The notes: generated from the sequence alone by a model not told the origin. A DNA stretch of 64,000 bases from Chthoniobacterales bacterium (GCA_014879535.1 JACSRX010000029.1:17902-81901); one strand, 5' to 3'; shown: positions 27,516 through 39,507, counted from the stretch's first letter. Numbers and translations: made by a program.

Positions 27516-28346
27516 TCACCACGCCGTGCGTCCGCCTTCCATCGGGATGACGGCCCCGGTCATGTAGGCGGATGCCTCCGAGCAGAGGAAGGCGACGACG
27601 GCCCGGTATTCCTCGCGCCGTGCCATGCGGCCCAAAGGAATCAGGGACGTCAACCTTGCCACGAATGCCGGATCCTGATTGTTCTCCACGCCCCCCGGAC
27701 ACAGGGCATTGCAGCGCACACCATCCGCCGCCCAGTAAGTGGCGAGGTATCGTGTCAGACCCACCAGGCCCGCTTTGACCACGGAGTAGGTCACCGGCTT
27801 TACCGGCTGATTTTCCGGGGCGAGACCGTCCTGCCGGTAAATCCTCTGGTCGGGGCCGATGAGAGCGAGATCGGAGGCGATGTTCAGGATCACGCCGCCA
27901 CGGTGCGCCGCCATGTCGGCCCCGAAGATGCGGCTGCAAAGAAAAGCTCCGGTGAGCCCAACGGCGACATCCAAGTTCCAGGCATCGACGGGAAAATTTT
28001 CCAGCCGTGACCATGGCTTGTCGGCACGCCCTTCGACCTTCGGATTGTTCGCCGCATTGTTGACGAGGATCGAAACGGGGTCACCAATTTTCTGCTTGGC
28101 CCGCTGGACGGCGCGCTCATCGGTGATGTCGCAGACCGCGGTGAGTGCTCGGACGCCGGTGGCGGCATGAATTTCCTCCGCCGCGTCCCGTAGCGCGGAC
28201 TCATGAATGTCCAGCAACACCGGCGTTGCCCCGCATCCCGCCAAGGCGATGGCATGCTCGCGCCCCAGCAGCCCCGATCCGCCGGTGACAACTGCGAGCT
28301 TGCCCGATAGATCGAACTTGGATGTGAGGTCGTCGGAGAGGTTCAT
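27516..28346 (-). CDS. Short-chain dehydrogenase/reductase (classical SDR)
   Basis: KLAVVTGGSGLLG cofactor motif and YSVVKAGL (YxxxK). Confidence 0.8.
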   Translation of the reverse strand: MNLSDDLTSKFDLSGKLAVVTGGSGLLGREHAIALAGCGATPVLLDIHESALRDAAEEIHAATGVRALTAVCDITDERAVQRAKQKIGDPVSILVNNAANNPKVEGRADKPWSRLENFPVDAWNLDVAVGLTGAFLCSRIFGADMAAHRGGVILNIASDLALIGPDQRIYRQDGLAPENQPVKPVTYSVVKAGLVGLTRYLATYWAADGVRCNALCPGGVENNQDPAFVARLTSLIPLGRMARREEYRAVVAFLCSEASAYMTGAVIPMEGGRTAW

Positions 28347-28359
28347 TCGAACAAATTAC

Positions 28360-28947
28360 TCAGGAGACCACCAGCAACGCATCTTCCACCACCTCGAGAA
28401 TGGCATGCCCCGCCGTGATGTGGACTTCTTGGATGCGACCTGTTTCATCCGAGGGGACCACCAAGGCCTCGTCGCAAAATGGCAGCGCCGGACCGCCACC
28501 GCATCCGAGAAAGCCGACCGTCCGGATGTCCATCGCCCGCGCCCTCTCGAAGGCTTTGATGACATTCGGGGACTTTCCCGAGGTGGTGATTCCAAGCACC
28601 ACGTCGCCCGGCCTTCCAAGCCCCTCGACCATCCGGGCGTAAAACTCCCCGTAGGAATAGTCATTGCCACACGCCGTCATGCTTGAGGAATCCAGAGCCA
28701 GCGCCAGCGCGGGAATGGGCGGCCGGTTGACATGAGGACGCAGGCGGACCAGCAGCTCCGCTGCCAAGTGCTGTGCATCCGCCGCCGATCCCCCGTTGCC
28801 GCAGAAGAGGATCTTGCCGCCACCCCTCAGGGACGCCGCCAGCATCCCGGCGATACGGACCATGGCCGGGAGACATTCATTGAGCGCGGCCCGCTTGGTT
28901 TCAATTGAGCGCTCGAAGAGCCCTCCGATGTGCTGTTCTGCTGTCAT
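28360..28947 (-). CDS. SIS-domain sugar-phosphate isomerase (GmhA/KdsD-like)
   Basis: Start at the internal ATG 28947. GGKILFCGNGGSAADAQHLAAELLVR and GDVVLGITTSGKSPNVI are GmhA-type SIS motifs. Confidence 0.8.
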   Translation of the reverse strand: MTAEQHIGGLFERSIETKRAALNECLPAMVRIAGMLAASLRGGGKILFCGNGGSAADAQHLAAELLVRLRPHVNRPPIPALALALDSSSMTACGNDYSYGEFYARMVEGLGRPGDVVLGITTSGKSPNVIKAFERARAMDIRTVGFLGCGGGPALPFCDEALVVPSDETGRIQEVHITAGHAILEVVEDALLVVS

Positions 28948-28950
28948 GGG

Positions 28951-28977
28951 TTTCAGTGGTTCAGTGGTGTCAGTTGG
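28951..28977. repeat. TTCAGTGG tandem module (period 8)
   Basis: T TTCAGTGG TTCAGTGG TGTCAGTTGG. It starts 4 nt upstream of the SIS-isomerase start codon (28947). Confidence 0.85.
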
Positions 28978-29103: not shown

Positions 29104-29859
29104 TCACAAGTGGCTCCTTACCTGCCCGCCATCGGCGACGAGGACCGTGCCTGTGATGAAGGACGCCTTGTCCGAGGCGAGAAACAGCACGGCATCCGCA
29201 ATCTCTTCGGGGCGTCCGAAGCGCCCCATGGCGACCTCCCGTTTCAGCATGGACTCCACGCCGGAGGGATCATTCCGGCGCTTCTCATCCCATGCCCCCT
29301 GCGGAACCAGGATATTGCCCGGAGCCACGGCATTGATGCGGATGTTTCGTGCTGCAAGCGGGCGGCACATGCCGGAAACGTAGGCATTGAGCGCAGCCTT
29401 GGCGGCCGAGTAGGCAACCGGCGCCCCCAGGGTTTCGACGCCGCAGATCGAGGAAACGCAAACGATGCTCCCCCCATCCGCGGGAAACATGGGAAGGCAT
29501 GCTGTCACGAGATTCGCTGCCGAAAGCAGGTTCACCGAAAGCATGTGATTCCATTCCTCCGGAGTCTCGCTGCCGGGAGGGACCGAGCGTCCGCTACCCA
29601 CGTTGCAGACAAGGATGTCGAGGCGCCCCCACGCGGCCCTGATGGCACCCGCCACATCCTCCGCACCGCCCGCGGTGGACACATCGGCGGAAACCGGCAG
29701 CGCCGCGAGTTCACCGGCCGCTGCGGCAACGCGGTCCTTGTCCCGGCCATTGACCGCAACCCTGGCGCCTTCACCCGAGAAACCCCGTGCGACGGCCAGC
29801 CCGATGCCCGCCGTGGAGCCCGAGACCAACACGCATTTCCCGGAAAATGAATTGCTCAT
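29104..29859 (-). CDS. Short-chain dehydrogenase/reductase (classical SDR)
   Basis: GKCVLVSGSTAGIGLAVA (TGxxxGIG) and YSAAKAALNAY (YxxxK). 4-nt overlap with the upstream gene. Confidence 0.8.
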   Translation of the reverse strand: MSNSFSGKCVLVSGSTAGIGLAVARGFSGEGARVAVNGRDKDRVAAAAGELAALPVSADVSTAGGAEDVAGAIRAAWGRLDILVCNVGSGRSVPPGSETPEEWNHMLSVNLLSAANLVTACLPMFPADGGSIVCVSSICGVETLGAPVAYSAAKAALNAYVSGMCRPLAARNIRINAVAPGNILVPQGAWDEKRRNDPSGVESMLKREVAMGRFGRPEEIADAVLFLASDKASFITGTVLVADGGQVRSHL

Positions 29860-30701
29860 GAGTTCTCCACTTCCGCCGATTTCCAGGCAGTTTCGACAAA
29901 ATCACGGTAGCGCGCCAGCGCTTCCACATGTCCACCATCCGCGGCACGCGCTGTCTGGAGGATCATGCTGCCCGTGTAGTTCCGCCTTTTCACGGCCCGG
30001 AAACAGCCGGTGAAATCGCAATCCCCCTCGCCCAGCGGCACGGTGGTCCCGCCGACCGCGCGATCCTTGATATGCACGTTGAGGATGCGACGTCCGTAGA
30101 GTTCCCACTCGGTTTCGGGTTCGAACCCCAAAGATGCGCTGTTGCCGGTGTCGTAGTTGACGCCGAAGACATCCTCCGGATAGCCCGCGATCCAGGAAGC
30201 AACCTCTTCGGGAGGAAGGTCGGTCTCAAAGGCGATCTTCACGCTCAGATCCCGCAGTGCCGCGGCACGACCGGTCAGATGCTCGCGGAGCGCCTTCTCC
30301 TGATCCATGGTCGCAACGCTTCCGTTGTCAACCAGCGGCACGACGACAATGCCGATCTGCATGGCTGAGCAGGCGTGCAGGATCGAGTCCAGTTCGTCGA
30401 GCAGAAGCGCCCGCTCCGCAGGATCCTCGACCTTCCAGAACGGCGCCTGCATGAAGCAGTCGCCGGTCAGTGACGGGATGGAGACACCGTGGGCGGCGCA
30501 GAGCATCCGGATTTCCGTTCGTCCCGCAGGCGTCATCAGCGGATTGTCCTTCAGGCCTTCGTGGTCGAGCGTCCATTCCATGCAGTGGAGGCCCAGTTTC
30601 TGCGCAGCGGGAAACTCACCTCTCCAATGCGCTGCAGGAAATGCCTGGATTTTGCCGCTCACCTGCGGGCTCAATCGCCCCTGCATGAATCCCAGAGTCA
30701 T
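29856..30701 (-). CDS. Xylose-isomerase-like TIM-barrel sugar(-phosphate) isomerase/epimerase
   Basis: 281 aa. The pattern LGLHCMEW...IPSLTGDCF...IGIVVVPLVDNGS...KIAFETDL...GVNYDTGN is typical of the AP-endonuclease-2/UlaE-like TIM barrels. Confidence 0.65.
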   Translation of the reverse strand: MTLGFMQGRLSPQVSGKIQAFPAAHWRGEFPAAQKLGLHCMEWTLDHEGLKDNPLMTPAGRTEIRMLCAAHGVSIPSLTGDCFMQAPFWKVEDPAERALLLDELDSILHACSAMQIGIVVVPLVDNGSVATMDQEKALREHLTGRAAALRDLSVKIAFETDLPPEEVASWIAGYPEDVFGVNYDTGNSASLGFEPETEWELYGRRILNVHIKDRAVGGTTVPLGEGDCDFTGCFRAVKRRNYTGSMILQTARAADGGHVEALARYRDFVETAWKSAEVENS

Positions 30702-31336
30702 GCGCGCCGGATGCCCAAGGCCAGCCTTTGGACCCTCACAATGCCGGGTGCGATCTCGAACGGCTCGGACTTGGTGTAGCGATCCTCCAGAAACCGGATG
30801 TCGAACCCCTGCGATTCAACAGCCGCGGCGAATTCGTCCTGCGTGAATTGGCGGATCCGGTAAGGCGCCGAAGCCCCGGGCTTTTGCAGCCATTGGTCGA
30901 GCGCCGTCCCATCGATGAAACTCCGCGCCAGAAAAATGCGGTTTGTGCTGGCGAGCAACCTCGCCACCGCCAGAAACGGATCGTTCAAGTGCTCCAGTGT
31001 GGCTGAAACAATCGTGATGTCGGCCTGCGGTGGTGGTGATTGTTCCACATCGAGTGTGCTCACCGAATCCTTCAGCTCGGGAAAATACCGGCAAGCAATC
31101 TCCAGATATGCCGGTTCGATGTCGAAACCACGGTAGCTTACCGGAAGATTCCGGCGCTTGAGGCTCTTGTAAAACTGCCCTGCACAGCACCCAATGTCAT
31201 TGAGCGTGCAGGACATTCCGGCCTCGAGCTGCCCGGAGATGATGTCGAGGAATTGTTCGCACCACGTGAGATATTCACCCTCGATCCTCCTTGAAACCGT
31301 CTCCAAGTATGCGTCGTTCTGTGTCGCTTGGAACAT
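30698..31336 (-). CDS. Class I SAM-dependent methyltransferase
   Basis: Motif I-like LNDIGCCAGQF and post-I FDIEPAYLEIA. 4-nt overlap with the downstream gene. Confidence 0.65.
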   Translation of the reverse strand: MFQATQNDAYLETVSRRIEGEYLTWCEQFLDIISGQLEAGMSCTLNDIGCCAGQFYKSLKRRNLPVSYRGFDIEPAYLEIACRYFPELKDSVSTLDVEQSPPPQADITIVSATLEHLNDPFLAVARLLASTNRIFLARSFIDGTALDQWLQKPGASAPYRIRQFTQDEFAAAVESQGFDIRFLEDRYTKSEPFEIAPGIVRVQRLALGIRRA

Positions 31337-31348
31337 GGGCGGTGAAGG

Positions 31349-32029
31349 TCAGGCTGCGGCCGGCTTCAAGCCGGTGCCGAGGATCATCAACTCGACCGAC
31401 CAGCGGACAAAGGAGGACTTTGGACGGTATTCCGGTCTCACCAGGCAGCGAAGCAGCCGCGACACGACCTTCAGGGATGGGTGCCTCCATAGAACCGGAA
31501 GTTGGTGGAACAATTCGGCTTGGACATCCTGAAACCCGCAGATCACCAGCAAATCATGCAGGCCGACCTGGGTGTAGGGGCGGCGATGCGTGTGGTCGTC
31601 GAAATAAATGCCCATCTGCGAGATCCAATCGGGCACAAGCGCAATGAGCCGCCCCCCCGGCCTCAGCACGCGCAGGGTTTCGTCCATCAAGGGCTCGGGA
31701 TCATCCAAATGCTCCAGCAGGGACTTGTGGAAGACGACGTCAAAGGATCCGTCCGGAAACGGCAGCCGGTCGCTCCCCGCACAGCAGGGATGCACGTCCA
31801 AGTCCGCACAACTCTGCAAAGCCGACGGACTCTGATCCACCCCCGAGACCTTCAAACCCAGCCGCGCGAACGCGCGCAAGAAGTCTCCGCGACCGAAGCC
31901 GACATCCAAGAAGCTCTGCCCCGGCTTCATGCCGAAACGACCGGCCAAATGGGACGCCAACTGGTCCGGATACTGCGTGACCGGCCGTGTGGTGGTGTCG
32001 TAGATGACGGAAACGTAGTCCTTTTTCAT
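31349..32029 (-). CDS. Class I SAM-dependent methyltransferase
   Basis: Start at ATG 32029, directly after the upstream stop. SFLDVGFGRGDFLRAFARLGLKVSGVD (motif I) and LRPGGRLIALVPD. Confidence 0.75.
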   Translation of the reverse strand: MKKDYVSVIYDTTTRPVTQYPDQLASHLAGRFGMKPGQSFLDVGFGRGDFLRAFARLGLKVSGVDQSPSALQSCADLDVHPCCAGSDRLPFPDGSFDVVFHKSLLEHLDDPEPLMDETLRVLRPGGRLIALVPDWISQMGIYFDDHTHRRPYTQVGLHDLLVICGFQDVQAELFHQLPVLWRHPSLKVVSRLLRCLVRPEYRPKSSFVRWSVELMILGTGLKPAAA

Positions 32030-32466
32030 TCGGCGGAAGGTTCGACCAGTTCTATCAGATTGCCCTCGGGATCGCGGCAAAAGGCGACGAAGGCGAGACC
32101 GTCAGGGGATTTCCGGGGCTCGGAGAGAAATGGCGTGCCGCCGGCGGAGAGGCTCTCATGAAGCGTGTTGAGGTCGTCCACCGTGAGCGCAAAATGGGTG
32201 ACGCCGGTGCGGAACAATGAAGGCATTTCCGCTTCCCCGGGTTTCGGTGCCTCGAAGTGCAGCAATTCCAGCAACGTCGGCCCCTCTTCGGCGGCCAGTT
32301 TCACCGTCGTGACCCTGGTGCCGGGCGCGGCAAGGACCGCATCCAAAAAGGCCCCGCTTTCCTCCATGCGCCGGGAAACCGAGAGCCCGAGTTTGCCGCA
32401 ATAGAACTCCAAAGCCCGGTCAAGATCCTTCACCACGATCCCGAAATGGCGCAGGCATCGGGTCAT
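32026..32466 (-). CDS. VOC-superfamily (glyoxalase/dioxygenase/epimerase-fold) protein
   Basis: 146 aa. LRHFGIVVKDLDRALEFY...GVTHFALTVDDLN...DPEGNLIELVE is the paired beta-alpha-beta-beta-beta VOC pattern. Confidence 0.75.
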   Translation of the reverse strand: MTRCLRHFGIVVKDLDRALEFYCGKLGLSVSRRMEESGAFLDAVLAAPGTRVTTVKLAAEEGPTLLELLHFEAPKPGEAEMPSLFRTGVTHFALTVDDLNTLHESLSAGGTPFLSEPRKSPDGLAFVAFCRDPEGNLIELVEPSAE

Positions 32467-33845
32467 GACCTTGCAATCTCATCGCGCACAACCTCGCGCA
32501 GAACCTGGAGCCCCTCGGAAAGGGCGTCCGGCTCGATGCAAAGCGGCGGGGCGATCTTGATGGATTCGCGCCCTGTGTGGACGAGAAGCAACCCGCGACG
32601 CATCGCCTCCTCGCAGATGCGGTCGCAAAGCCCCGACAGCGGGCGTCCCTCGGGATCGTTGAAAATCAGGGCGGCGAGCAAACCCCGCCCGAGCACATGG
32701 GCAAGGTGGGAGGGATGATCCCGTTGGATGTCGCGCAGCCCCCCGTGCAACCGGGTTCCGAGTTCCTCGACGCGTGAGAGCATCCCGCCATCGAGAAGAA
32801 CATTCAAATTTGCCAATCCGGCAGCACAGACGAGCGGATTCGCCGAATGGGTCGAACTCATCGAGCCGATGTCGGGAAGGTCCATGATTTCCCTGCCGCC
32901 GAGCACGAGGGCCAAAGGCACGCCGGAAGCCGCCCCTTTTCCGCAACAAAGCAGATCCGGTTCCACGCCATAGTGCATGTATCCGAACAGGCGCCCGGTC
33001 CTGCCGAAGCCCGCCTGCATCTCGTCAAACGCGAGCAACAGGTCATGCTTGCGGCAAAACCGCTCGACGGCCTGGACGAAGACCTCAGGATAGAACACGG
33101 CACCCCACCCTTGGAACGTCTCCATCATGACCCCGCAAAGATCCGTGGAGGGATCGAGCCCGTTCTCCGCACAAAGCACGGCCATGGAGCGCTCGAAATA
33201 CCCTGCGGGGTCGCTCATGGCCTCCTCGCGCCACGGATACGGGAAAGGAAGATGAAAAATGTTGGGATCGAGAAAGCCGATCCATTCCTTCTGGGCCGGA
33301 TTCCAACTCAGCATCTGGGCCCCCATCGTCCGCCCATGCCAGTTCCCCTCGAAGCAAAGGATTCCCGGGCGCTTCTTGCCGGCCTTCGCGGCCTGCAACC
33401 GCATCAGTTTCAGGGCGCACTCGGTCGCCTCGGTTCCCGCAGAAAGAAGGAAAGCCTTCTCGAACTGGGCCGGAGTGACCGTGACAAGCCGCTCGATATA
33501 ATCCGCCCGTTCCTTGGTCGCATAGGTGTAGGAATGCAGCAGCGGTTTGCGGAGCACCGCCTGCAGGCTGTCGATGATCTCCGCATTCCCATGTCCGGCG
33601 TTCGTGACGAAGATCGTCGAGGTGAAATCGATCCATGTGTTGCCCCAAGCATCGTGCACCTGGAAGCCCTCGGCGCGGTCCCACACCACGGGCAGTTGCC
33701 CGTGCATGGAGCGGGACTCGCAATCGTAGAGCTTCTGCAGGATCGGCAACGATTCTGGAACCGGTAATGCCGTCTGGATGGTCCGGTAGCGGGTTCGCAC
33801 CGCCGGAACTTCAACTGGAGTGTGGGAAAATCCGTGTCCTGCCAT
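32463..33845 (-). CDS. Class III PLP-dependent aminotransferase
   Basis: Start at ATG 33845. FVTNAGHGNAEI, SAGTEATECALKL, FDEMQAGFGRTG and the PLP-lysine context LLCCGKGAASG. Confidence 0.8.
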   Translation of the reverse strand: MAGHGFSHTPVEVPAVRTRYRTIQTALPVPESLPILQKLYDCESRSMHGQLPVVWDRAEGFQVHDAWGNTWIDFTSTIFVTNAGHGNAEIIDSLQAVLRKPLLHSYTYATKERADYIERLVTVTPAQFEKAFLLSAGTEATECALKLMRLQAAKAGKKRPGILCFEGNWHGRTMGAQMLSWNPAQKEWIGFLDPNIFHLPFPYPWREEAMSDPAGYFERSMAVLCAENGLDPSTDLCGVMMETFQGWGAVFYPEVFVQAVERFCRKHDLLLAFDEMQAGFGRTGRLFGYMHYGVEPDLLCCGKGAASGVPLALVLGGREIMDLPDIGSMSSTHSANPLVCAAGLANLNVLLDGGMLSRVEELGTRLHGGLRDIQRDHPSHLAHVLGRGLLAALIFNDPEGRPLSGLCDRICEEAMRRGLLLVHTGRESIKIAPPLCIEPDALSEGLQVLREVVRDEIARS

Positions 33846-33850: not shown

Positions 33851-34603
33851 TCAGACTTTGGAGGCTGATTCCGCAACCATCCCGACCAAGGGATGAGTCT
33901 GACGGCCCAATTGCCATTCAAGAAAGGCAAAATCCTCGAAGGAATCAATTTCTGCGCTGATCTCGGTGATGAAAGGCAGCATGTCCACCCCGTAGAGTTG
34001 TCCCGCGGACAGCACGAATCCGCTTCGGCAGATGTCCACATAGCCGTTGGGTTGGTAGGCGGCGGGAAAGGATTGCCTCGGGAGGTTGAAATACTCGGGC
34101 CGGGGGTCGTCAGGGAAAAATCCCGTGAACCTGTTGTCCACGATCTGCAGCATCTTGTGCGGAGACTCGTTGAGGAGGTGGGCCGAGCGCAACGACGACG
34201 CGGCCTCGTCAGCCACCAGCGCCTGGATCGCCTCCTCCAGCTTCCCCGGATGACGCAATGGCGTGGTGGGACGCAGCTGGACCACAAGACCCGGTCGCCA
34301 TCCCTCCTCCGATTCGAGCCATTCCAAGGCGTGCCGGACGTAGGCGAGATCAGGCGCGGTGTCCGTGGCGAGCTCTTCCGGCCTGAGGAAGGGGGTCTCT
34401 GCCCCATAGTGTCTCCCGATCCTGGCGAGCTCCGGGCTGTCCGTGCTCACGATGACACGGGTGATCGCGGGGCATTTTTTGCCGGCGACCACCGCATAGG
34501 CGATCAAGGGATGGCCCGCAAGAAGATGAACATTCTTGCCGGGAACGCCCTTCGAACCCGCCCTCGCAGGAACTATCGCCAAAACGTCGGTATTAGCCAT
34601 CAA
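33851..34603 (-). CDS. NeuA/KdsB-type cytidylyltransferase (CMP-sugar acid synthetase family), copy 1
   Basis: N-terminal LAIVPARAGSKGVPGKNVHLLAGHPLIAY is the acylneuraminate cytidylyltransferase P-loop-like motif. Confidence 0.8.
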   Translation of the reverse strand: MMANTDVLAIVPARAGSKGVPGKNVHLLAGHPLIAYAVVAGKKCPAITRVIVSTDSPELARIGRHYGAETPFLRPEELATDTAPDLAYVRHALEWLESEEGWRPGLVVQLRPTTPLRHPGKLEEAIQALVADEAASSLRSAHLLNESPHKMLQIVDNRFTGFFPDDPRPEYFNLPRQSFPAAYQPNGYVDICRSGFVLSAGQLYGVDMLPFITEISAEIDSFEDFAFLEWQLGRQTHPLVGMVAESASKV

Positions 34604-34622: not shown

Positions 34623-35279
34623 TCAGGGTATTTTCTCACTCAAGAACACCACCCAATCGTCATTGCCTCCATTTGCCGTTCGGTCCGCAAAACGGCAGTC
34701 AACGAGCGTCTTGAAAGCTGGGGCGAACAGTCCGACGAGCGCTTCGGGGCACGGCAGGATGTCCTTTCCGATGAAATCGCGATCCAAGGGGGGAAAGTTT
34801 TGCGCCACAAGAAGACGTCCGCCGGGGGCAACCAAGGCCGTCAGATTGGACACCACCATGTCGATGGCATCGAACAGATACCAGAAGCACCCGCGGATGA
34901 CCACGAGGTCGTAGGGTTCGGCCGCTTGCATCGGCTTCTTGAGGTCGGCCACCGAGAACCCGATGCCCGGGAACATGGAACCGGCGTTGTGAACGGCCGT
35001 GGGTGAAATGTCGCAACCGAAGATCCGTGCTTGGGGGAGTCGCTTGGCGAGGAGATCGGCGAAATACCCGAGCCCGCATCCCGCCTCGAGCACCTTCCCA
35101 TGCCCGGGAAGCGCGAACTCCGCGATGCCGAGGGCGATTTTGCAGTCAAGCCGGGCGCCATCCTCGTCCTGATGCCACGGTGCCACTGAGGACTTCGAAT
35201 ACATCTGCTCGAACTCCCCCACCAGTCTGCCGTCCTTGAAGACGAAGTCGTGGTAATCGGCGGACTCGATTTCAGCCAT
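34623..35279 (-). CDS. SAM-dependent methyltransferase (NodS-like)
   Basis: Start at ATG 35279 or 35288. APWHQDEDGARLD...GKVLEAGCGLGYFADLLA...YDLVVIRGCFWYL resembles NodS-type methyltransferases. Confidence 0.65.
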   Translation of the reverse strand: MAEIESADYHDFVFKDGRLVGEFEQMYSKSSVAPWHQDEDGARLDCKIALGIAEFALPGHGKVLEAGCGLGYFADLLAKRLPQARIFGCDISPTAVHNAGSMFPGIGFSVADLKKPMQAAEPYDLVVIRGCFWYLFDAIDMVVSNLTALVAPGGRLLVAQNFPPLDRDFIGKDILPCPEALVGLFAPAFKTLVDCRFADRTANGGNDDWVVFLSEKIP

Positions 35280-36279
35280 TGTCGTCATCCGTGAACGAGT
35301 AGGGTGTCGCGGCGCCGGGTTTGGAGGTTTCAGCGTCACCCCAGCCTGCGATCTGGCCGACGATGTCCACCCCGACATTCGAGCTCCATGCATCGATCAG
35401 TCTCCGGTAAATCGGCCCGACGGTGCCCGCGCCGAGCGGGCGCCCCAAATACGACGTGGCCGGCACCATGCAGAACGGCGTGCATGTGAAGAAGGCCTCG
35501 TCGGCCGTCATCACGTCGTAGGGCTCGAGGTTCACCTCGCGGAATGGAATGCCGAGGCCGGCGGCCAGTTCGATCACGTATTGCCGGCTGATCCCCCGAA
35601 GCATGTTGCGGGGCTCCGCGCTGAGAAGTTCCCCGTTTTTGACGATGAAGAAATTCGAGCCTGTTCCTTCCGTCACAAAGCCATCGGGATCCACGAGGAG
35701 CGCCCAGGCATTCTTTCCATTGTAGCGGGAAGCCTCGATGTTCGCCATGAGGTAGTGGATGCGGTTGCGGTTTTTGACCTTGGGTTCGAGAAGCTGGGCC
35801 GGGATCATCCGCTGGGACGGGATGAAGATGTCGATGCCCTCCCGATACAGGTGCTCACTGCCCCGCACGGTCCAGCGCAAGGGGAAATCCGCGACGATGA
35901 GGTTCGGGCCGGAAGGGACATTCACCCGCCCGTCATAAATGCCGAGCAGTCCCCGTGTGACATTGATCAGAAGCCGGTGTTCGTCGTCATCGGCAAAAAG
36001 CGGCTCATTGGCACGCACCACCTCGTCGCAGATCGATTCCAATTCTTCCACGGTCTCGCGCAGTGGGATGCGGAGCCAAGCCGCCGAGGCGACAAGGCGT
36101 TCCAGATGCCCGCGCAGTTTGAACTGCTTCCCGTTGAACGAGCGTGTCATCTCGAAGGCGACATCGCCGAACATCAGTGCGCTGTCATAAATTGAAAGGC
36201 GCGCTTCCGGCTCCGGAACCAGTTTCCCGTTCCAATAGACGAGGCGTTCGCCGCCCCGCTTGCTGTCAGTGTGGCTCAT
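35272..36279 (-). CDS. Class IV PLP aminotransferase (branched-chain/D-amino-acid aminotransferase fold)
   Basis: Start at ATG 36279. SIYDSALMFGDVAFEMTRSF and VTEGTGSNFFIVKNGELLSAEPRNMLRGISR fit the class IV pattern. Confidence 0.8.
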   Translation of the reverse strand: MSHTDSKRGGERLVYWNGKLVPEPEARLSIYDSALMFGDVAFEMTRSFNGKQFKLRGHLERLVASAAWLRIPLRETVEELESICDEVVRANEPLFADDDEHRLLINVTRGLLGIYDGRVNVPSGPNLIVADFPLRWTVRGSEHLYREGIDIFIPSQRMIPAQLLEPKVKNRNRIHYLMANIEASRYNGKNAWALLVDPDGFVTEGTGSNFFIVKNGELLSAEPRNMLRGISRQYVIELAAGLGIPFREVNLEPYDVMTADEAFFTCTPFCMVPATSYLGRPLGAGTVGPIYRRLIDAWSSNVGVDIVGQIAGWGDAETSKPGAATPYSFTDDDNG

Positions 36280-37010
36280 TGGTGTTTGGTCGGAGGATCG
36301 GGAATGGAGGCCTGAAGTTTGGAGGCAAAAAGCAGGCGGCACAACTCCAAGCCGTCCGCACTGTCGATCTCGAACGCCTTCCACGGCTCGACTTCCTGCA
36401 CCCCGATGCGGCCGTGCAGCCGGTTCCGGGTTCGTCTCAAGCCCTCAAGATCCGTGAGATAGAACGATCCCGTCTCGATCCAGAGCGGCTCATCAGGCCT
36501 GTCCTGGCGCCGCCCCCGGGCACGATGGTCGAAATTCAGGCTTTCGAGTTCCTCACCCCTTTGCCTCCAGATGCAGAAGTCCTCCGCCGGAGCCGCGCTG
36601 AACAGAGAATCGAACTTGCGGGCTTGGAATGTCTCCACAGCGGCATTGAGCTCGGCAACTTCGCGCAGCGGCGAAGTTGCCTGGAGGAACATCAGATGAG
36701 TCGGGTCGAAACCTCGGGCTTCCACCTCTCCGGCCGCATGGATCAGGGCCGATTCGGAACTGGCCGTGTCACCGCTCAATTCCGGCGGCCGATCGACCAC
36801 CTCAGCTCCATACCTGCGGGCAACCGCCGCAATGTCGGCATCATCCGTCGAGACCCAGACTCCCCGGACCGCGGCGCAGCAGCGCGCGCAGGCAATGCTC
36901 CAAGCCAGCAGCGGATGACCGCAGAAATCCGTGATGTTCTTGCCGGGGAGCCCCTTAGAGCCACCGCGTGCGGGAATGATGGCGTGGATGTTCAAGCGGA
37001 CGCCGGCCAA
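36276..37010 (-). CDS. NeuA/KdsB-type cytidylyltransferase, copy 2
   Basis: HAIIPARGGSKGLPGKNITDFCGHPLLAW. The start overlaps the 3' end of the NeuB-like gene by 19 nt. Confidence 0.8.
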   Translation of the reverse strand: MAGVRLNIHAIIPARGGSKGLPGKNITDFCGHPLLAWSIACARCCAAVRGVWVSTDDADIAAVARRYGAEVVDRPPELSGDTASSESALIHAAGEVEARGFDPTHLMFLQATSPLREVAELNAAVETFQARKFDSLFSAAPAEDFCIWRQRGEELESLNFDHRARGRRQDRPDEPLWIETGSFYLTDLEGLRRTRNRLHGRIGVQEVEPWKAFEIDSADGLELCRLLFASKLQASIPDPPTKHQ

Positions 37011-37891
37011 TACCTGAGCTTGCCGGCCACGGCCTTCTCGGCGTCGCTGACGCGCTTGATGCCGTCGCCGAGCACCGCCGGCAACTTGCGTATCTGGGAC
37101 ACAAGCGTTTCAAGCCCCGGCTTTTCAAGCGAGGCGGCCTGGTCGCTGCCATACATGGCGCGATCGAGGGTGATGTGGCGCTCGACGACCACGGCACCGA
37201 GGGCGGCCGCCATGACCGAGGGTGAAACGCTCACCTCATGCCCGCTGTAGCCGACGGGGACACCGTAGCGCTTCCTGAGCTCCTGCATGGCGAGCAGATT
37301 GAGGTCTTCCTCGGCGCACGGGTAGGTGCTGACCGTGTGCATGATGGTGAAGGGACAGTTGTGCTTGCGCAGGATGGCGACGGCCTTGTCCACATCCTCG
37401 TAGGTGCACATGCCGACGGAGAGGAACGTCGGCTTCTTCTCCGAGGCGACGGCTTCCACAAACTCCGGATGCGTGGCCATGGCCGAGGCGATTTTGTTGT
37501 AGGGGAGATCGTAGGATCGGAGAAATTCCTGACTGGGGATGTCCCAAGCCGAGGCGAACCATGCGATGCCCTTGTCGCGGCAGTAAGCGTCGATTTCGTC
37601 GTATTGCGCCTTGCTAAACTCGAGGCCTTCCTTCTGTTCCTTTGTCGTTGTTCCCCACGGGCTCTGCCGCGGCGTGGCCAGAACCTCCGGGCTGTAAACG
37701 ATGTCGATCGTCCTCTTCTGGAACTTGACCGCATCGCATCCCGCCTCCGCCGCCATGTCGATCAGCTGCTTGGTGATGCCCATGTCACCGTTGTGGTTGA
37801 TGCCGATCTCGGCGAAAATCAGGCATTTCTCCGGGACGCTGAAGGCATCGACGCTGACGGCATTCCCGCTGTTTTGTGTGCTTTTTGTCAT
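36992..37891 (-). CDS. NeuB-family PEP-condensing sugar-acid synthase, TIM-barrel domain only (no SAF domain)
   Basis: LIFAEIGINHNGDMGITKQLIDMAAEAGCDAVKFQKRT and YSGHEVSVSPSVMAAALGAVVVERHITLDRA are NeuB/PseI/LegI motifs. At 299 aa it ends before the C-terminal SAF/antifreeze-like domain of canonical ~345-aa NeuB. Confidence 0.75.
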   Translation of the reverse strand: MTKSTQNSGNAVSVDAFSVPEKCLIFAEIGINHNGDMGITKQLIDMAAEAGCDAVKFQKRTIDIVYSPEVLATPRQSPWGTTTKEQKEGLEFSKAQYDEIDAYCRDKGIAWFASAWDIPSQEFLRSYDLPYNKIASAMATHPEFVEAVASEKKPTFLSVGMCTYEDVDKAVAILRKHNCPFTIMHTVSTYPCAEEDLNLLAMQELRKRYGVPVGYSGHEVSVSPSVMAAALGAVVVERHITLDRAMYGSDQAASLEKPGLETLVSQIRKLPAVLGDGIKRVSDAEKAVAGKLRYWPASA

Positions 37892-37904
37892 AGGGTTGTT
37901 GGGT

Positions 37905-38414
37905 TCAGAGATTGGTGGCCCGGGAGCCGTTCAGTTGGGCGTCCATGTCGATGGACAGGATCTGCTCGACGATCTCGCGGACGATTCCAGAGCCTCCCGG
38001 GGTTGACAAGCAATACGTGGCCATCGCCTTCACGCTCGGATGTGCATCGGACGGACATGCGACAAAGGCGCACAAGGCTGCCGCAGGAAGGTCGTTCACG
38101 TCATTCCCGACATAGAGCGTGCGATCCAGGGGAAAACCCTCTTCTTTCGCCAAGGCCCGCAGGCTGGCGGCTTTGTCGGAGGCTCCATGGACAGCGCGGA
38201 TCCGCAGTTTCTCCGCACGCCTGGCCACAACCGTGTTCTTCTCCGTCGAGAGAATGAAGAGCTTGAGATGGGTTTTGCGCAGGACGTCGAACGCCAATCC
38301 GTCGCGCCGGGAGCAACTGACCGTTTCCCGGCCATCCTGGTCGACCCAGACCCGGTCGTCGGTGAGAACGCCGTCAAAATCGAAAACGATGGCCTCGAGT
38401 TCGCTGAGGGTCAT
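37905..38414 (-). CDS. KdsC-type HAD-IIIA sugar-acid phosphate phosphatase
   Basis: Start at the internal ATG 38414. DxDxT motif VFDFDGVLTDD, then RRDGLAFDVLRK...YVGNDVNDLPA as in Kdo-8-P/KDN-9-P phosphatases. Confidence 0.75.
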   Translation of the reverse strand: MTLSELEAIVFDFDGVLTDDRVWVDQDGRETVSCSRRDGLAFDVLRKTHLKLFILSTEKNTVVARRAEKLRIRAVHGASDKAASLRALAKEEGFPLDRTLYVGNDVNDLPAAALCAFVACPSDAHPSVKAMATYCLSTPGGSGIVREIVEQILSIDMDAQLNGSRATNL

Positions 38415-38466
38415 GAAATTGTTCGCGGGGACTGGAGACGGGAGGCTAACTCTCCCCCGCGGCGTG

Positions 38467-39507
38467 TCAAGGGATCGGCAGCCCGGCCCCGGCGGTGGGG
38501 GTGTAATCCCTAACCACCACCATGCCCGGGGAGCGTCCGTAGTTCGCATAGCATGTGGCAGCCATGACTTTTTCAATGGGGGTGCGGATTTCTTCGCTTG
38601 CGACGTGGAACGAGATCAAGCGTCCGTCCGGCGCCACCCCGCTCAAGCGGAGCGTGTCCAGCACCGTCGAGTAGAACCCCGCCACGAACGAGGGCTTCTG
38701 CCCCCCCTGCAGCATGCTCATCTCGAACGGCAGTTCGCCCAGGACGATTTCAATGCGGAGTTCCGCAAAAACCGACTCTTTGAGGTGCATGTGCTCGGTG
38801 CGATGGGCGTAATACCGGATTGGCCTCGAGCCGAAATGGGCGCGGATCCCGCGCATCAGTTCGAAGAATCTTGGATAGGACATCTCCTCGTTGTCCGGAA
38901 GGTTCGAACCGACGAACAGGACAGGGCCTGCGTCGTCGAATTCGATGCTCCTTCGGACAAAGCCGAGGCGGTTCCTCTCGAGCCTGTCGGGGGGGTGGAT
39001 TTCGAGATCATAGATCGAGAAGAATGTCAGCGCCGGAGGGAGCTCGGGATCGAATTTCAGAAGTCTGTTGGCGCCCTTGGCGGGATAGCGGGCATCCCTC
39101 ACCCCGCGGTATCGGAAGTCGGAGAATGAAAGGGACGACGTGCCGTCATCCACAAGATGGAACTCTGCACCAGTGCAAAGATTCGCCGCCGCAACCATCA
39201 TGCCCAGCGCATATTCGCCCACATGGACTCTGGCAACGGGCTGCAAACGAGAGATCCAGTGGCGCAGCACCATCCAGTTCCAGAGCTTTCCGAGCGTTGA
39301 TGTCCTGCACGGCAGTCGGTGCAAGGGCTGCCACTTCAGAAAGCGCAGGGTGTTTTCAACCAGCCTGTTGTGGTAGGCATTCTCTTTCTCGAGAAGGATC
39401 AGATCGTGCTCCACGCCATCCCCGTCCCGCTCCCTCGCCTCGAAGGCGTTCAAAATCTGGAGGGGTGACTGGGCGAGATAAAGATGCCTGACTTTGGTTG
39501 CCTTCAA
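38467..39507 (-). CDS. Putative sialyltransferase-like GT-B transferase (CMP-ulosonic acid transferase candidate)
   Basis: There is no in-frame ATG near the conserved N-terminus. A TTG at 39507, 6 nt after the upstream stop, is proposed as the start (..KATKVRHLYLAQSPLQILNAFEA). A D-D-G motif (HLVDDGTSS) and YYAHRTEH sit where bacterial GT38/52/80 sialyltransferases carry D/E-D/E-G and H-P. The call is tentative. Confidence 0.4.
   Translation of the reverse strand: MKATKVRHLYLAQSPLQILNAFEARERDGDGVEHDLILLEKENAYHNRLVENTLRFLKWQPLHRLPCRTSTLGKLWNWMVLRHWISRLQPVARVHVGEYALGMMVAAANLCTGAEFHLVDDGTSSLSFSDFRYRGVRDARYPAKGANRLLKFDPELPPALTFFSIYDLEIHPPDRLERNRLGFVRRSIEFDDAGPVLFVGSNLPDNEEMSYPRFFELMRGIRAHFGSRPIRYYAHRTEHMHLKESVFAELRIEIVLGELPFEMSMLQGGQKPSFVAGFYSTVLDTLRLSGVAPDGRLISFHVASEEIRTPIEKVMAATCYANYGRSPGMVVVRDYTPTAGAGLPIP

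Follow-up and report, generated by a model that had tools for sequence, protein, structure and literature searches.

What would a gene run built around a NeuB-type synthase make if it also encodes two cytidylyltransferases, two aminotransferases of different fold and three methyltransferases, and do these enzymes serve one pathway or two? The window analysed here is a 64,000-nucleotide stretch from a Chthoniobacterales bacterium (GCA_014879535.1 JACSRX010000029.1:17902-81901), in which positions are counted from the first letter. The initial annotation had read the run as one linear, non-canonical route to a CMP-activated ulosonic acid.

Operon layout and genomic context

ORF listing and translation recover 15 intact genes at 27516-39507, all on the minus strand and transcribed from high to low coordinates (Table 1). 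Seven junctions overlap, by 4 nt at 36992/36995, 36276/36279, 32463/32466, 32026/32029, 30698/30701 and 29856/29859 and by a short stretch at 35272/35288; the remaining gaps are 5-52 nt, except that between G03 and G02, where the choice of G02 start codon gives either 12 or 156 nt. The Pfam families represented are adh_short (twice), SIS_2, AP_endonuc_2, Glyoxalase/VOC, Aminotran_3, Aminotran_4, class I methyltransferases (three), CTP_transf_3 (two), NeuB and HAD. The gene order and close spacing described in the initial annotation are thus recovered, as is every family that it named, except that the 15th protein (G15) has no Pfam or NCBIfam match. None of the 15 genes reaches an NCBIfam equivalog cut-off, each match falling below its curated threshold, which agrees with the view of a non-canonical CMP-ulosonic acid locus with isomerase, KdsC-type phosphatase and cytidylyltransferases around a NeuB-type synthase.

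The interval first assigned is right for these 15 genes but too narrow for the operon, which runs from 41738, through G17 and G16, down to about 16.6 kb. The 15 genes are part of a Wzx/Wzy-type polysaccharide locus of ~26 kb, whose downstream assembly genes (16633..27502, minus strand) were assigned by Pfam scan and hydropathy count. The best NCBIfam match of G17 is dTDP-glucose 4,6-dehydratase (123 bits against a cut-off of 365); assignment to the PseB/LegB (Polysacc_synt_2) type was ruled out by its Pfam Epimerase score and a LegB score of 45 against 475. Pfam and NCBIfam searches of the 16-42 kb cluster revealed no PseB/LegB, DegT-type aminotransferase, N-acetyltransferase or NeuC, consistent with the earlier statement that the canonical Pse/Leg/Neu feeder enzymes are missing, and no N-acyltransferase was found at the locus.

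Table 1. Predicted genes of the polysaccharide operon, in order of transcription.
Gene	Predicted product	Position	Strand	Basis or remark
G17	NAD-dependent epimerase/dehydratase	40677..41738	-	First operon gene; Pfam Epimerase 144 bits
G16	GT4 glycosyltransferase	39513..40667	-	Glycos_transf_1 + Glyco_transf_4
G15	Sialyltransferase-like GT-B protein, putative CMP-ulosonic acid transferase	38467..39507	-	AlphaFold2 model
G14	KdsC-family HAD phosphatase (trunk)	37905..38414	-	Pfam HAD; DFDGV and GNDVND motifs
G13	SAF-less NeuB-type PEP-aldose synthase NeuB1 (trunk)	36992..37891	-	Pfam NeuB 237 bits
G12	Cytidylyltransferase CT2 (module A)	36276..36995	-	CTP_transf_3
G11	Fold-type IV (class IV) aminotransferase (module A, slot X)	35272..36279	-	Aminotran_4 151 bits
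G10	Class I SAM methyltransferase MT10 (module A)	34623..35288	-	Methyltransf_25/12/11
G09	Cytidylyltransferase CT1 (module B)	33851..34600	-	CTP_transf_3
G08	Class III aminotransferase (module B, slot X)	32463..33845	-	Aminotran_3 276 bits
G07	VOC/glyoxalase-fold protein (module B)	32026..32466	-	Glyoxalase 79 bits
G06	Class I methyltransferase MT6 (module B)	31349..32029	-	Methyltransf_11 77 bits
G05	Class I methyltransferase-like MT5 (module B)	30698..31336	-	Weak Methyltransf_12/11 matches
G04	Xylose-isomerase-like TIM barrel (trunk, cassette signature)	29856..30701	-	AP_endonuc_2 82 bits
G03	Short-chain dehydrogenase SDRa (trunk)	29104..29859	-	adh_short_C2 180 bits
G02	GmhA-like SIS isomerase (trunk, optional in family)	28360..28947	-	SIS_2
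G01	Short-chain dehydrogenase SDRb (trunk)	27516..28346	-	adh_short_C2 126 bits
	GT8	26510-27502	-	Assembly gene
	GT2	25632-26849	-	Assembly gene
	Wzx-type flippase	24047-25588	-	Assembly gene
	FkbM methyltransferase	23223-23987	-	Assembly gene
	UDP-sugar dehydrogenase	21908-23185	-	Assembly gene
	GT4	20626-21828	-	Assembly gene
	Wzy-like protein	19038-20480	-	Assembly gene; 480 aa, ~9 TM
	FkbM-like protein	18296-19075	-	Assembly gene
	GT4	16633-18138	-	Assembly gene

One trunk, two modules and a putative transferase

The window combines one trunk with two modules, each with its own cytidylyltransferase and methyltransferase(s). In the trunk, NeuB1 (299 aa) has no SAF domain by Pfam, carries the motifs EIGINH, KFQ, GYSGHE and ERHIT, and scores below threshold against TIGR03569 (242 versus 400) and PseI (178 versus 340); its homologues across phyla are 65-89% identical. 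The HAD protein is best matched by the Bacteroides KDN-9-P phosphatase model (91 bits against 180), followed by KdsC (84 against 208). The GmhA-like isomerase is about 50% identical to solved GmhAs and retains the motifs CGNGGSAADAQH..AEL, TSGKSPN and RIQE.H, with NCBIfam scores of 179 against 276 (PRK13936) and 170 against 209 (TIGR00441). The signature TIM barrel, whose family comprises 407 clusters at E<=1e-30, finds UlaE as its best PDB match in a profile search (E 2.5e-19); a weak match to IolE (28 bits) and one to IolI were also obtained. Its residues E159, D184, H210 and Q249 are invariant in all 82 family members compared, with Q249 standing in each in place of E251, the second catalytic Glu of UlaE; R9, K212, R214 and R252 are also invariant. 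SDRb best matches gluconate 5-dehydrogenase and mannonate oxidoreductase types, below cut-off.

Module A consists of CT2, the fold-IV aminotransferase and MT10. CT2 scores 122 against 206 for PseF and is 71% identical to the cytidylyltransferase of a locus carrying this module alone (L001). The fold-IV enzyme, 75% identical to its L001 counterpart and 61% to that of a Bacteroidota locus (L005), falls below the cut-off of every NCBIfam BCAT and DAAT model, and in the PDB it is closest to archaeal BCATs, followed by (R)-selective amine transaminases. MT10 (NodS model, 34 against 300) has homologues confined to loci with module A (L001, L007, L016). Module B consists of CT1, the class-III aminotransferase, the VOC protein and MT6/MT5. 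CT1 scores 114 against 206 for PseF and is 73% identical to the cytidylyltransferase of a module-B locus (L003); its resemblance to CT2 (40% identity) extends only over the N-terminal 126 residues, the nucleotide-binding half. The class-III enzyme, 78% identical to that of L003, is below cut-off for every NCBIfam model, with GABA-aminotransferase-like proteins as nearest PDB entries; a metagenome scan returned 80 relatives, essentially all in module-B cassettes, where the VOC gene almost always follows that of the aminotransferase. MT6 homologues are confined to these loci, and MT5 is 55% identical to the L003 methyltransferase. The modules thus match by type (CT2 and fold-IV enzyme 70-75% to L001, CT1 and class-III enzyme 73-78% to L003), whereas the shared genes match both.

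G15 has no sequence similarity to bacterial sialyltransferases detectable with Pfam or NCBIfam, and its homologues, only 19 clusters, are all unnamed or annotated 'hypothetical'. Its AlphaFold2 model (pLDDT 87) adopts a GT-B fold, as first proposed, and Foldseek ranks polysialyltransferase (5wcn/5wc6, E 2e-8, TMq 0.56) first among PDB entries, the matches also including sialyltransferases from Pasteurella and Neisseria. The D-D-G motif noted earlier (D120-D121-G122) is invariant in 19 of 19 aligned sequences (the window protein and 18 homologues); the conserved His-Pro motif was not found in G15, an invariant H235-R236 being present instead. G15 is also 47% identical to the product of a gene adjoining a second NeuB/CT-HAD pair in L001.

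A widespread modular cassette

A further 165 loci, spread over many phyla, carry the gene set in the same order, so the arrangement is not a product of chance. A TIM-based scan places the cassette in the genomes of at least 291 species. Among these are Verrucomicrobiia, cyanobacteria such as Prochlorococcus, Alpha-, Beta-, Gamma- and Deltaproteobacteria, Nitrospira, Chlorobium, Acidimicrobiales and Acidobacteria. In one Prochlorococcus locus (L085), a KpsS/KpsC-like Capsule_synth protein adjoins the cassette. By sequence comparison, the invariant trunk is the TIM barrel with its E-D-H-Q site plus SDRa, which adjoins the TIM gene in nearly all loci, and SDRb, also found in nearly all. The synthase is either SAF-less NeuB1 or a NeuB-SAF-TIM fusion of 630 aa, the two forms being interchangeable. 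Among loci that have NeuB1 only, 17 of 33 yielded a HAD gene, against none of the 35 that have the fusion only.

A variable slot is filled by a third SDR (flavour C, 35 loci), the fold-IV aminotransferase (flavour A, 21 loci) or the class-III aminotransferase with VOC protein (flavour B, 21 loci), and, in the window alone among the loci of this first set, by A and B together. The cytidylyltransferase type co-varies with the slot, CT2 being nearest in 15 of 15 flavour-A and 20 of 22 flavour-C loci and CT1 in 19 of 19 flavour-B loci. The cassette is widespread yet apparently unstudied: neither a paper on this gene set nor a published pathway was found in the open-access full texts searched, in keeping with the initial impression that it matches no known pathway. 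What sets the window apart is its two alternative amination branches, a rare composite rather than a one-off.

A model for the composite locus and its alternatives

The best explanation, about as likely as not, is that the locus provides the sugar precursors within a Wzx/Wzy-type surface-polysaccharide operon and is a composite member of a widespread, modular and apparently uncharacterised CMP-ulosonic acid cassette, the mechanism of which we infer. The cassette probably builds a Kdn-like nine-carbon sugar acid and then modifies it, and the window probably makes two activated amino-sugar acids for surface polysaccharide, likely both aminated and methylated. Gene content suggests how the steps follow one another, which carbon is oxidised or aminated and what each trunk enzyme may do. 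The isomerase would supply a manno-configured aldose phosphate, which NeuB1 would condense with PEP before the HAD enzyme strips the phosphate, giving a Kdn-type 3-deoxy-2-ulosonic acid. SDRb would oxidise one hydroxyl, the TIM barrel would catalyse a one-base reaction beside the resulting ketone, most likely beta-elimination of water (compare IolE or 3-keto-sugar eliminases), and SDRa would reduce one resulting carbonyl. The slot enzyme would act on the remaining carbonyl, by reduction in flavour C and by transamination in flavours A and B. In flavour B, the ketone may first be shifted or epimerised by the VOC protein, after which amination by the class-III enzyme would fall on another carbon or face; this would account for the cytidylyltransferase being of another type. 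Module-specific methyltransferases may act on the new amine or a neighbouring hydroxyl, CT2 and CT1 would yield two different CMP-sugars, and G15 would attach one or both of these to the repeat unit.

That CT1 and CT2 most likely activate two different products follows from the modules almost always occurring singly elsewhere: they are apart in 163 of 166 loci (84 of 85 and 78 of 80 in the two sets scored, the first leaving out L002 and L004 as copies of L001 and L003) and together in three, including the window. The other two composites (L161 and L162, from marine metagenomes) differ in gene order and represent an independent recurrence, so the combination appears selectable, if rare; both cytidylyltransferases are kept in the window and in L162, and L112 also has both. 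This recurrence, the single operon with overlapping stops and the chance that a trunk-derived diketone could offer each aminotransferase a carbonyl fit the linear route first proposed, in which 15 enzymes in series yield one ulosonic acid, aminated twice and methylated up to three times, with one cytidylyltransferase redundant or activating an intermediate. We nevertheless consider that route improbable: the separation of the modules, the tie of each to its own cytidylyltransferase type and the restriction of CT1/CT2 likeness to the N-terminal half argue for two different sugar substrates, and comparative genomics reveals a shared trunk with two alternative, separately evolving amination modules. 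Against the two-product model stands the single sialyltransferase-like gene for two proposed donors, and a single sugar aminated twice is another possible product of the composite.

The remaining alternatives concern the trunk. Since its closest solved relative, UlaE, is a sugar-phosphate 3-epimerase acting on a pentulose 5-phosphate, the TIM barrel could act on a ketose phosphate before NeuB. Extended to the whole cassette, this would have the isomerase, TIM barrel, SDRs and aminotransferase remodel a ketose or aldose phosphate, as in kanosamine or GlcN-6-P synthesis, before NeuB condenses the finished amino-sugar phosphate with PEP and the phosphatase and cytidylyltransferase follow. The SIS and HAD proteins are indeed phosphosugar enzymes, and the invariant Arg and Lys residues of the barrel could bind phosphate, though equally a carboxylate. 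A NeuB accepting a hydroxyl, an amine or regio-isomers would, however, be expected to co-vary with the slot, whereas both NeuB forms occur with all three flavours and NeuB1, TIM and SDRb distances are the same within and between flavours A and B (NeuB1 means 0.41, 0.41 and 0.40), indicating that the trunk, unlike the cytidylyltransferase, is not adapted to the slot; modification before condensation is thus unlikely. NeuB1 may also not be a plain Kdn-9-P synthase, because it is only 33% identical to the second NeuB of L001, which sits with a CT-HAD fusion. The resemblance of the SIS protein to genuine sedoheptulose-7-P isomerases makes a heptose (C10) precursor no less plausible than mannose-6-P. 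With a true GmhA, NeuB1 would join D-glycero-D-manno-heptose-7-P and PEP into a 3-deoxy-dec-2-ulosonic acid 10-phosphate, followed by dephosphorylation, tailoring and CMP activation as in the preferred model. All seven cyanobacterial loci not cut off upstream have their own SIS gene, and heptose is generally absent from the LPS of cyanobacteria. In favour of this backbone there is also mass-spectrometric evidence that environmental bacteria contain higher-carbon ulosonic acids (PMC8157484). It nonetheless appears doubtful, as about half of the loci lack the SIS gene, the best HAD model is a KDN-9-P phosphatase and the NeuB fusion architecture is linked to KDN (C9) in Serratia. Moreover, GmhA paralogues such as Campylobacter PtmF occur in nonulosonic-acid clusters without making heptose.

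Comparison with known systems

The two-product model shares elements with several characterised systems. With the pseudaminic and legionaminic acid pathways (PseB/C/H/G/I/F; LegB/C/H/G/I/F) it has in common that an amino-deoxy ulosonic acid arises with NeuB-type condensation, is activated with CMP and is passed to a surface glycan; the locus differs in lacking a PseB/LegB-type NDP-sugar 4,6-dehydratase, DegT-type aminotransferase, N-acetyltransferase and NeuC/PseG hydrolase, its PseI and PseF matches are below cut-off, and amination would instead fall to fold-IV and class-III enzymes. Bacterial GT-B sialyltransferases (GT38 polysialyltransferase, GT52, GT80) are the best fold match of the G15 prediction, but at a TM-score of only ~0.56, and G15 has the invariant D-D-G and H235-R236 in place of His-Pro. 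Xylose-isomerase-like TIM barrels take part in oxidise-eliminate-reduce chemistry as IolG/IolE in inositol catabolism and as 3-keto-sugar eliminases in levoglucosan and glycoside pathways. Like the cassette, these systems pair a dehydrogenase with an AP_endonuc_2 TIM barrel that has a metal site, although sequence likeness is marginal and the fourth metal/base position is an invariant Gln in the cassette enzyme.

The Kdo pathway (KdsD, KdsA, KdsC, KdsB) has the same order of isomerase, PEP condensation, HAD phosphatase and cytidylyltransferase, but the condensing enzyme here is NeuB-type rather than KdsA, the isomerase is GmhA-like without CBS domains rather than KdsD, and KdsC and KdsB models score far below cut-off. 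In Kdo8N synthesis in Shewanella, KdnB oxidises the free ulosonic acid and KdnA then transaminates it. The same oxidation-then-transamination logic is proposed for the window, with SDRs in place of an iron alcohol dehydrogenase and different aminotransferase folds. The 'Kdo-like logic' of the initial annotation is better termed Kdn-9-phosphate-like, given the SAF-less NeuB, the best HAD model and the fusion architecture. Synthesis of Kdn via KDN-9-P (KDN-9-P synthase, KDN-9-P phosphatase and CMP-Kdn synthetase of Bacteroides thetaiotaomicron; neuA-neuB of S. marcescens KL1/KL2) has in common with the cassette a NeuB-family enzyme that condenses PEP with a sugar phosphate, a HAD phosphatase of the KdsC family and a cytidylyltransferase of the CTP_transf_3 family, and neither route needs nucleotide-sugar feeder enzymes. 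The KDN capsule of Serratia marcescens needs a NeuB with NeuB + COG1082 domain architecture together with NeuA (PMC9000132), and the cassette NeuB fusion has this same architecture, as matched on the paper's domain description rather than by sequence comparison. Relative to this route, the cassette HAD remains below the KDN-9-P phosphatase equivalog cut-off, and the cassette adds a TIM barrel, two SDRs, an SDR/aminotransferase slot, methyltransferases and a GmhA-like isomerase.

Gene content and family assignment

The genes at 27516-39507 most probably (probability about 0.85) form a locus for CMP-ulosonic-acid biosynthesis and transfer belonging to a conserved, uncharacterised family. The initial annotation had described 15 closely packed genes on one strand, and the listing of open reading frames confirmed this: all 15 are intact, lie on the minus strand and are transcribed from high to low coordinates, and at most junctions the stop and start codons overlap by 4 nt or neighbouring genes are 5-52 nt apart. 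They are numbered G01-G15 from low to high coordinate, with start codons trimmed against homologues. Pfam agrees with each protein family that the annotation had named, and a search of the operon with Rfam found no riboswitch or other Rfam element.

Genes of the ulosonic-acid cluster, in order of transcription
Gene	Product	Position	Strand	Assignment
G15	GT-B protein	38467-39507	-	no family match in Pfam/NCBIfam
G14	HAD phosphatase	37905-38414	-	Pfam
G13	NeuB, 299 aa, without SAF domain	36992-37891	-	Pfam
G12	cytidylyltransferase CT2	36276-36995	-	Pfam CTP_transf_3
G11	class IV aminotransferase	35272-36279	-	Pfam
G10	class I methyltransferase MT10	34623-35288	-	Pfam
G09	cytidylyltransferase CT1	33851-34600	-	Pfam CTP_transf_3
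G08	class III aminotransferase	32463-33845	-	Pfam
G07	VOC protein	32026-32466	-	Pfam
G06	class I methyltransferase MT6	31349-32029	-	Pfam
G05	class I methyltransferase MT5	30698-31336	-	Pfam
G04	xylose-isomerase-like TIM barrel	29856-30701	-	Pfam AP_endonuc_2
G03	SDR (SDRa)	29104-29859	-	Pfam
G02	SIS isomerase	28360-28947	-	Pfam SIS_2
G01	SDR (SDRb)	27516-28346	-	Pfam

All NCBIfam matches of the 17 proteins G01-G17 (which include two encoded upstream, G16 and G17) score below the curated cut-offs, and therefore no curated product name can be transferred to any of them. NeuB (G13) reaches 242 against a cut-off of 400 for NeuB_NnaB (TIGR03569) and 178 against 340 for PseI, and the two cytidylyltransferases reach 114 and 122 against 206 for PseF; the KdsB model gives at most 51 against 193 and the KdsC model 84 against 208. 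The SIS isomerase falls short of the equivalog cut-offs of the GmhA models (TIGR00441, 170 versus 209; PRK13936, 179 versus 276), and the best match of the HAD phosphatase is the KDN-9-P phosphatase model NF058599 (91 bits versus a cut-off of 180).

A conserved modular cassette

The SAF-less proteins of ~280-300 aa to which NeuB (G13) belongs form a very large family, and relatives across phyla are 65-89% identical to G13; such SAF-less 'environmental' NeuBs have been remarked upon in a NeuB phylogeny paper. The contexts of five NeuB homologues display two gene orders, termed flavours A (NeuB - CT - class-IV aminotransferase - (MT) - TIM - SDR - (SIS) - SDR) and B ((HAD) - NeuB - CT - class-III aminotransferase - VOC - (MT) - TIM - SDR - (SIS) - SDR). 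In flavour C, a third SDR (SDRc) fills the aminotransferase position, as in the Prochlorococcus locus L085 (SIS-HAD-NeuB-CT-SDRc-TIM-SDRa-SDRb). The 87 loci assigned comprise 35 of flavour C, 21 of A, 21 of B, one A+B (the window) and nine that are unclear. The TIM barrel and the two SDRs of the G03 and G01 types occur together essentially always and, with NeuB, the HAD phosphatase and an optional SIS isomerase, constitute a trunk whose synteny holds across phyla around this variable slot.

The cassette is widely distributed. An alignment scan with the TIM barrel, sampling one genome per species, recovered relatives in at least 291 species genomes, from which 80 loci were fetched, and all-against-all HMMER comparison placed the family in 407 clusters (50% identity) at E<=1e-30. 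Carriers include Verrucomicrobiia (the best match, 60%; the metagenome-assembled genome carrying L007 is among the best relatives), cyanobacteria including Prochlorococcus and Cyanobium, Alpha-, Beta-, Gamma- and Deltaproteobacteria, Nitrospira, Chlorobium, Acidimicrobiales, Acidobacteria, SAR86 and SAR116. Among the carriers in culture are Chlorobium phaeovibrioides BrKhr17, Chromobacterium sphagni, Terasakiella sp. A23, Bradyrhizobium sp. OK095 and isolates of Cyanobium/Phormidium. NeuB, TIM and SDRb are no more alike within flavours A or B than between them (mean NeuB distances within and between flavours A and B of 0.41, 0.41 and 0.40), and by this measure the trunk is not adapted to the slot. 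A search of open-access papers and preprints found no description of a cassette combining the TIM barrel, two SDRs and a slot; a paper on Accumulibacter contained nothing relevant to it, and one on Rubrivivax EmbRS deals with GDP-heptose genes and has no bearing on it.

Several variations accompany the cassette elsewhere. The closest metagenomic relative, the flavour-A locus L001, carries inside its cassette two small genes for '23S rRNA intervening sequence proteins' (PF05635; L001:5438-5713 and L001:15579-15938; also in L002) that are absent from the window, one between a CT-HAD fusion and a second NeuB, the other between SIS and SDRb. In one Prochlorococcus genome, a protein with a weak KpsS/KpsC-like Capsule_synth domain (L085:12448-13737) comes after the flavour-C cassette, suggesting that the product is there handled by a transferase of a different family. 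Some members of the TIM family (P0260, P0267 and P0380) are fusions of ~520-560 aa with the TIM domain N- or C-terminal, whose partner domains could reveal functional coupling.

Two aminotransferase modules in one locus

The window contains both aminotransferase modules. CT2, the class-IV aminotransferase and MT10 are 71, 75 and 52% identical by BLASTP to their counterparts in the flavour-A locus L001, and CT1, the class-III aminotransferase, the VOC protein and MT5 are 73, 78, 64 and 55% identical to those of the flavour-B locus L003, while NeuB, HAD, TIM, both SDRs and SIS match loci of the two flavours about equally. Judged from these identities, the window is best described as a composite of a flavour-A and a flavour-B cassette. 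The cytidylyltransferases follow the slot: the nearest type is CT2 in 15/15 A loci and 20/22 C loci, and CT1 in 19/19 B loci. CT1 and CT2 share 40% identity, confined to the N-terminal 126 residues; a recent duplication was rejected because the identity is restricted to the N-terminal half and because each is closer to the orthologues that other phyla carry in the corresponding module. The methyltransferases are likewise module-specific (MT10 with A; MT6 and MT5 with B). In flavour-B locus L003, a 52-aa ORF (L003:13484-13642) with 70% identity over 23 residues to MT6 seems to be what is left of that methyltransferase gene after decay.

A metagenome scan with the class-III aminotransferase yielded 80 flavour-B loci, and the marine contigs L161 and L162 also encode the class-IV enzyme and both cytidylyltransferases; both cytidylyltransferases are present in L112 as well. 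The gene order of L161 and L162 differs from that of the window. Found in 3/166 loci, the window included, the A+B composite is therefore rare, yet it has arisen more than once. The nearest relatives of the class-IV enzyme are archaeal branched-chain aminotransferases, then (R)-selective amine transaminases, and those of the class-III enzyme are GABA-aminotransferase-like proteins; neither is of the DegT type used in known nonulosonic-acid routes.

Synthase forms, phosphatase and isomerase

The window NeuB retains the conserved motifs EIGINH, KFQ, GYSGHE and ERHIT and lacks the SAF domain; no curated KDN-9-P synthase model in NCBIfam matched it. A second NeuB form of ~630 aa, in which NeuB and SAF domains are fused to a second AP_endonuc_2 domain, takes the place of the SAF-less NeuB in other cassettes (e.g. 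L047:3963-5855; also L028, L056 and ~35 other loci). This fusion family is itself very large and highly conserved, its best 120 matches being at least 78% identical to the query. Both forms occur with every flavour, and a GmhA-like SIS gene is found in about half of loci with either form. A KdsC-like HAD gene accompanies the SAF-less form in 17/33 loci having this form alone versus 0/35 fusion-only loci; in the window protein, the HAD motifs DxDG and GNDxxD are intact. Because the fusion is never accompanied by a HAD phosphatase, its TIM domain may possibly be a phosphatase, or alternatively prepare the substrate. Endonuclease IV belongs to the same superfamily as this domain. The idea that the domain duplicates the cassette TIM barrel was rejected, as the two have no significant sequence similarity. 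In Serratia marcescens, a NeuB with an extra COG1082 domain is required, together with NeuA, for a KDN-containing capsule (PMC9000132).

The SIS isomerase (G02) shares ~50% identity with phosphoheptose isomerases of solved structure and, when aligned to 1tk9 and 2xbl, shows conservation of CGNGGSAADAQH..AEL, TSGKSPN and RIQE.H..H, which we take to be the catalytic, metal-binding and phosphate-binding motifs of GmhA. Locus L001 additionally holds a second ulosonic-acid set (L001:4161-7899), consisting of the CT-HAD fusion and a NeuB 33% identical to the cassette NeuB, beside a G15 homologue and a Wzx gene; in that organism, separate synthases probably give rise to two different ulosonic acids, and either set may include the G15-type transferase.

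The TIM barrel and a candidate transferase

The nearest solved relative of the TIM barrel (G04) is the L-ribulose-5-P 3-epimerase UlaE (profile E 2.5e-19); it scores 46 versus 317 with the corresponding NCBIfam model. E159, D184 and H210 are invariant among the cassette TIM barrels (n=82), and where UlaE has the second of its two catalytic/metal glutamates, E155 and E251, all 82 carry a glutamine (Gln249). This replacement makes a two-base 3-epimerase unlikely, and a one-base reaction, for example elimination or isomerisation next to a carbonyl, would fit better.

The GT-B protein (G15) has homologues in only 19 clusters, all unnamed or annotated as 'hypothetical'. Its AlphaFold2 model (pLDDT 87) adopts a GT-B fold, matched best in Foldseek by a polysialyltransferase with bound CDP and by further bacterial sialyltransferases. 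Enzymes of the latter kind carry a D/E-D/E-G and an H-P motif; in the G15 family, the D-D-G motif (120-122) and H235-R236 are invariant, and the HP pair of the window protein (171-172) is not conserved. On the basis of this predicted structure, G15 is a candidate CMP-ulosonic acid transferase for at least one of the window's products.

Polysaccharide locus and flanking genes

The operon extends beyond 27516-39507. Upstream lie genes for a GT4 glycosyltransferase (G16) and an NAD-dependent epimerase/dehydratase (G17), and downstream, according to Pfam, those for GT8, GT2, a Wzx-type flippase, an FkbM methyltransferase, a UDP-sugar dehydrogenase, GT4, a Wzy-like protein (480 aa, ~9 hydrophobic segments by hydropathy count), an FkbM-like protein and another GT4. 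G+C content falls to 0.56-0.57 across 18-26 kb of the window, a dip common in polysaccharide loci, and housekeeping genes lie on either side (H+-pyrophosphatase, DAHP synthase, ABC transporter). Pfam and NCBIfam searches of the 16-42 kb cluster detected no DegT-type aminotransferase, PseB/LegB-type dehydratase, NeuC, N-acetyltransferase (GNAT), PseG or Polysacc_synt_2, bearing out the earlier remark that the canonical Pse/Leg/Neu feeder enzymes are missing. G17 was considered for a PseB/LegB-like step and rejected on family grounds (LegB, 45 versus 475).

A 540-aa protein (11320-12942, minus strand), encoded some 4 kb past the polysaccharide cluster, has a SASA domain of the sialate O-acetylesterase-type carbohydrate esterases and may be unrelated to the locus or act on an acylated ulosonic acid. 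A 1285-aa protein (7434-11291, plus strand), just downstream of a tRNA-Met gene (7339-7415), combines Big_3_5 domains with passenger-associated transport repeats (PATR). Large surface proteins in Verrucomicrobia and Planctomycetes typically have this architecture, which fits with a metagenome-assembled genome of Verrucomicrobiia giving the best cassette match. A 1199-aa protein (48327-51926, plus strand) has an unusual architecture of an N-terminal TerB-like domain, an ABC ATPase and an ABC-2 membrane domain.

Proposed pathway and alternatives

Since all flavours share the trunk enzymes and the slot is occupied by a reductase or by either aminotransferase, what the trunk hands to the slot must be a carbonyl-bearing intermediate. 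As the cytidylyltransferase co-varies with the slot and NeuB does not, the slot reaction most likely occurs after condensation and before CMP activation. A Kdn-9-phosphate-type start is suggested by the restriction of the HAD phosphatase to the SAF-less NeuB form, by its best-matching model and by the KDN capsule that depends on the COG1082-NeuB of Serratia. In flavour C, a hydroxyl would be oxidised by SDRb, the beta-hydroxyl eliminated by the TIM barrel to give a deoxy-diketone, and both carbonyls then reduced by SDRa and SDRc; IolG/IolE and the 3-keto-sugar eliminases offer parallels for oxidation followed by elimination. For flavours A and B, transamination would replace one of the reductions, yielding an amino-deoxy ulosonic acid. 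Since A and C share a cytidylyltransferase type and B has its own as well as a VOC protein, A and C may act on the same carbon, and B, once the VOC protein has catalysed a ketol shift or an epimerisation, on a carbon next to it or on the opposite face. With no N-acyltransferase found, the module-specific methyltransferases are candidates for N-methylation (or O-methylation). The window would accordingly make two CMP-sugars from one trunk. We give this model, in its full mechanistic detail, even odds.

The initial annotation had inferred one sugar acid made by a route unlike known pathways; its view of the pathway as non-canonical and its family names stand, and the locus reads better as a composite of a common cassette, branching to two products, than as a unique linear route. 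A single linear pathway to a doubly aminated sugar appears quite unlikely, given that the two aminotransferase modules are separate in all loci but the window, L161 and L162 and that each is paired with its own cytidylyltransferase. It is also conceivable that all tailoring takes place on the sugar phosphate, prior to NeuB, as might be suggested by the resemblance of several enzymes to UlaE and to phosphosugar enzymes; NeuB nevertheless shows no co-variation with the slot, and we disfavour this order of events as unlikely.

Another possibility concerns the length of the backbone. The GmhA-like isomerase could feed heptose-7-phosphate to the SAF-less NeuB, creating a ten-carbon backbone and a hitherto unrecognised route, without NDP-sugars, to a new class of amino-deoxy higher ulosonic acids, by which the window would make two CMP-decosulosonic acids differing at the aminated carbon. 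Higher-carbon ulosonic acids have been reported by mass spectrometry (PMC8157484; also the SugarBase preprint), G02 closely resembles true GmhA, and an SIS gene is present in 7/7 cyanobacterial loci not cut off upstream. However, half of the cassettes are SIS-less and the Serratia link is to KDN, and we regard both the ten-carbon backbone and the route built upon it as improbable. Trunk reactions from a Kdn-9-phosphate-type start, with the slot acting after NeuB, are the reading we prefer.

Significance and relation to known pathways

Sialic-acid-like sugars shape the recognition of cells by phages, predators and immune systems. To our knowledge, few biosynthetic routes to them have been described (Neu, Kdn, Pse, Leg and epimers), and those we know of, bar that via Kdn-9-phosphate, start from nucleotide sugars and use DegT-type aminotransferases. 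The cassette represents a further variant of CMP-ulosonic-acid biosynthesis that is widespread, modular and directly testable, and it is carried by lineages abundant in the ocean and in fresh water, such as Prochlorococcus, SAR86, SAR116, Nitrospira and Verrucomicrobia. Its design, a common trunk with one slot for a hydroxyl or an amino group and a matching activating enzyme, predicts three families of new CMP-sugars, which DMB-based or CMP-sugar mass spectrometry should detect, and five to eight small soluble enzymes should be enough to reconstitute the pathway. If this is borne out, the cassette would constitute a new branch of ulosonic-acid biosynthesis, provide enzymes for non-natural sialic-acid analogues and might account for unassigned ulosonic acids of environmental surveys; were the ten-carbon reading true, it would also supply a genetic basis for 'higher-carbon ulosonic acids', hitherto seen by mass spectrometry only.

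Comparison with the Pse, Leg, Neu5Ac and Kdo pathways places the locus in none of them, in keeping with its non-canonical character. PseB, PseC, PseH and PseG of the pseudaminic acid pathway are absent, and the PseI and PseF models score below equivalog level. The legionaminic acid and Neu5Ac pathways employ SAF-bearing NeuB/LegI and the feeder enzymes LegB, LegC, LegH and LegG or NeuC, whereas the locus has neither SAF domain, NeuC-type epimerase nor DegT enzyme. In the Kdo pathway, KdsD combines SIS and CBS domains and KdsA has a DAHP-synthase fold; here, the SIS protein is GmhA-like without CBS and the operon contains no KdsA. At the level of transfer, the bacterial sialyltransferases of GT38, GT52 and GT80 have the GT-B fold of the G15 model in common with it. 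The locus resembles the Kdo8N and Pse/Leg routes in its logic of oxidation followed by transamination, and the Kdn-9-P route at its start; unlike the latter, in which three enzymes, namely a NeuB-family KDN-9-P synthase using a hexose 6-phosphate, KDN-9-P phosphatase and CMP-Kdn synthetase, produce unmodified Kdn, it adds 11 conserved, co-transcribed biosynthetic genes.
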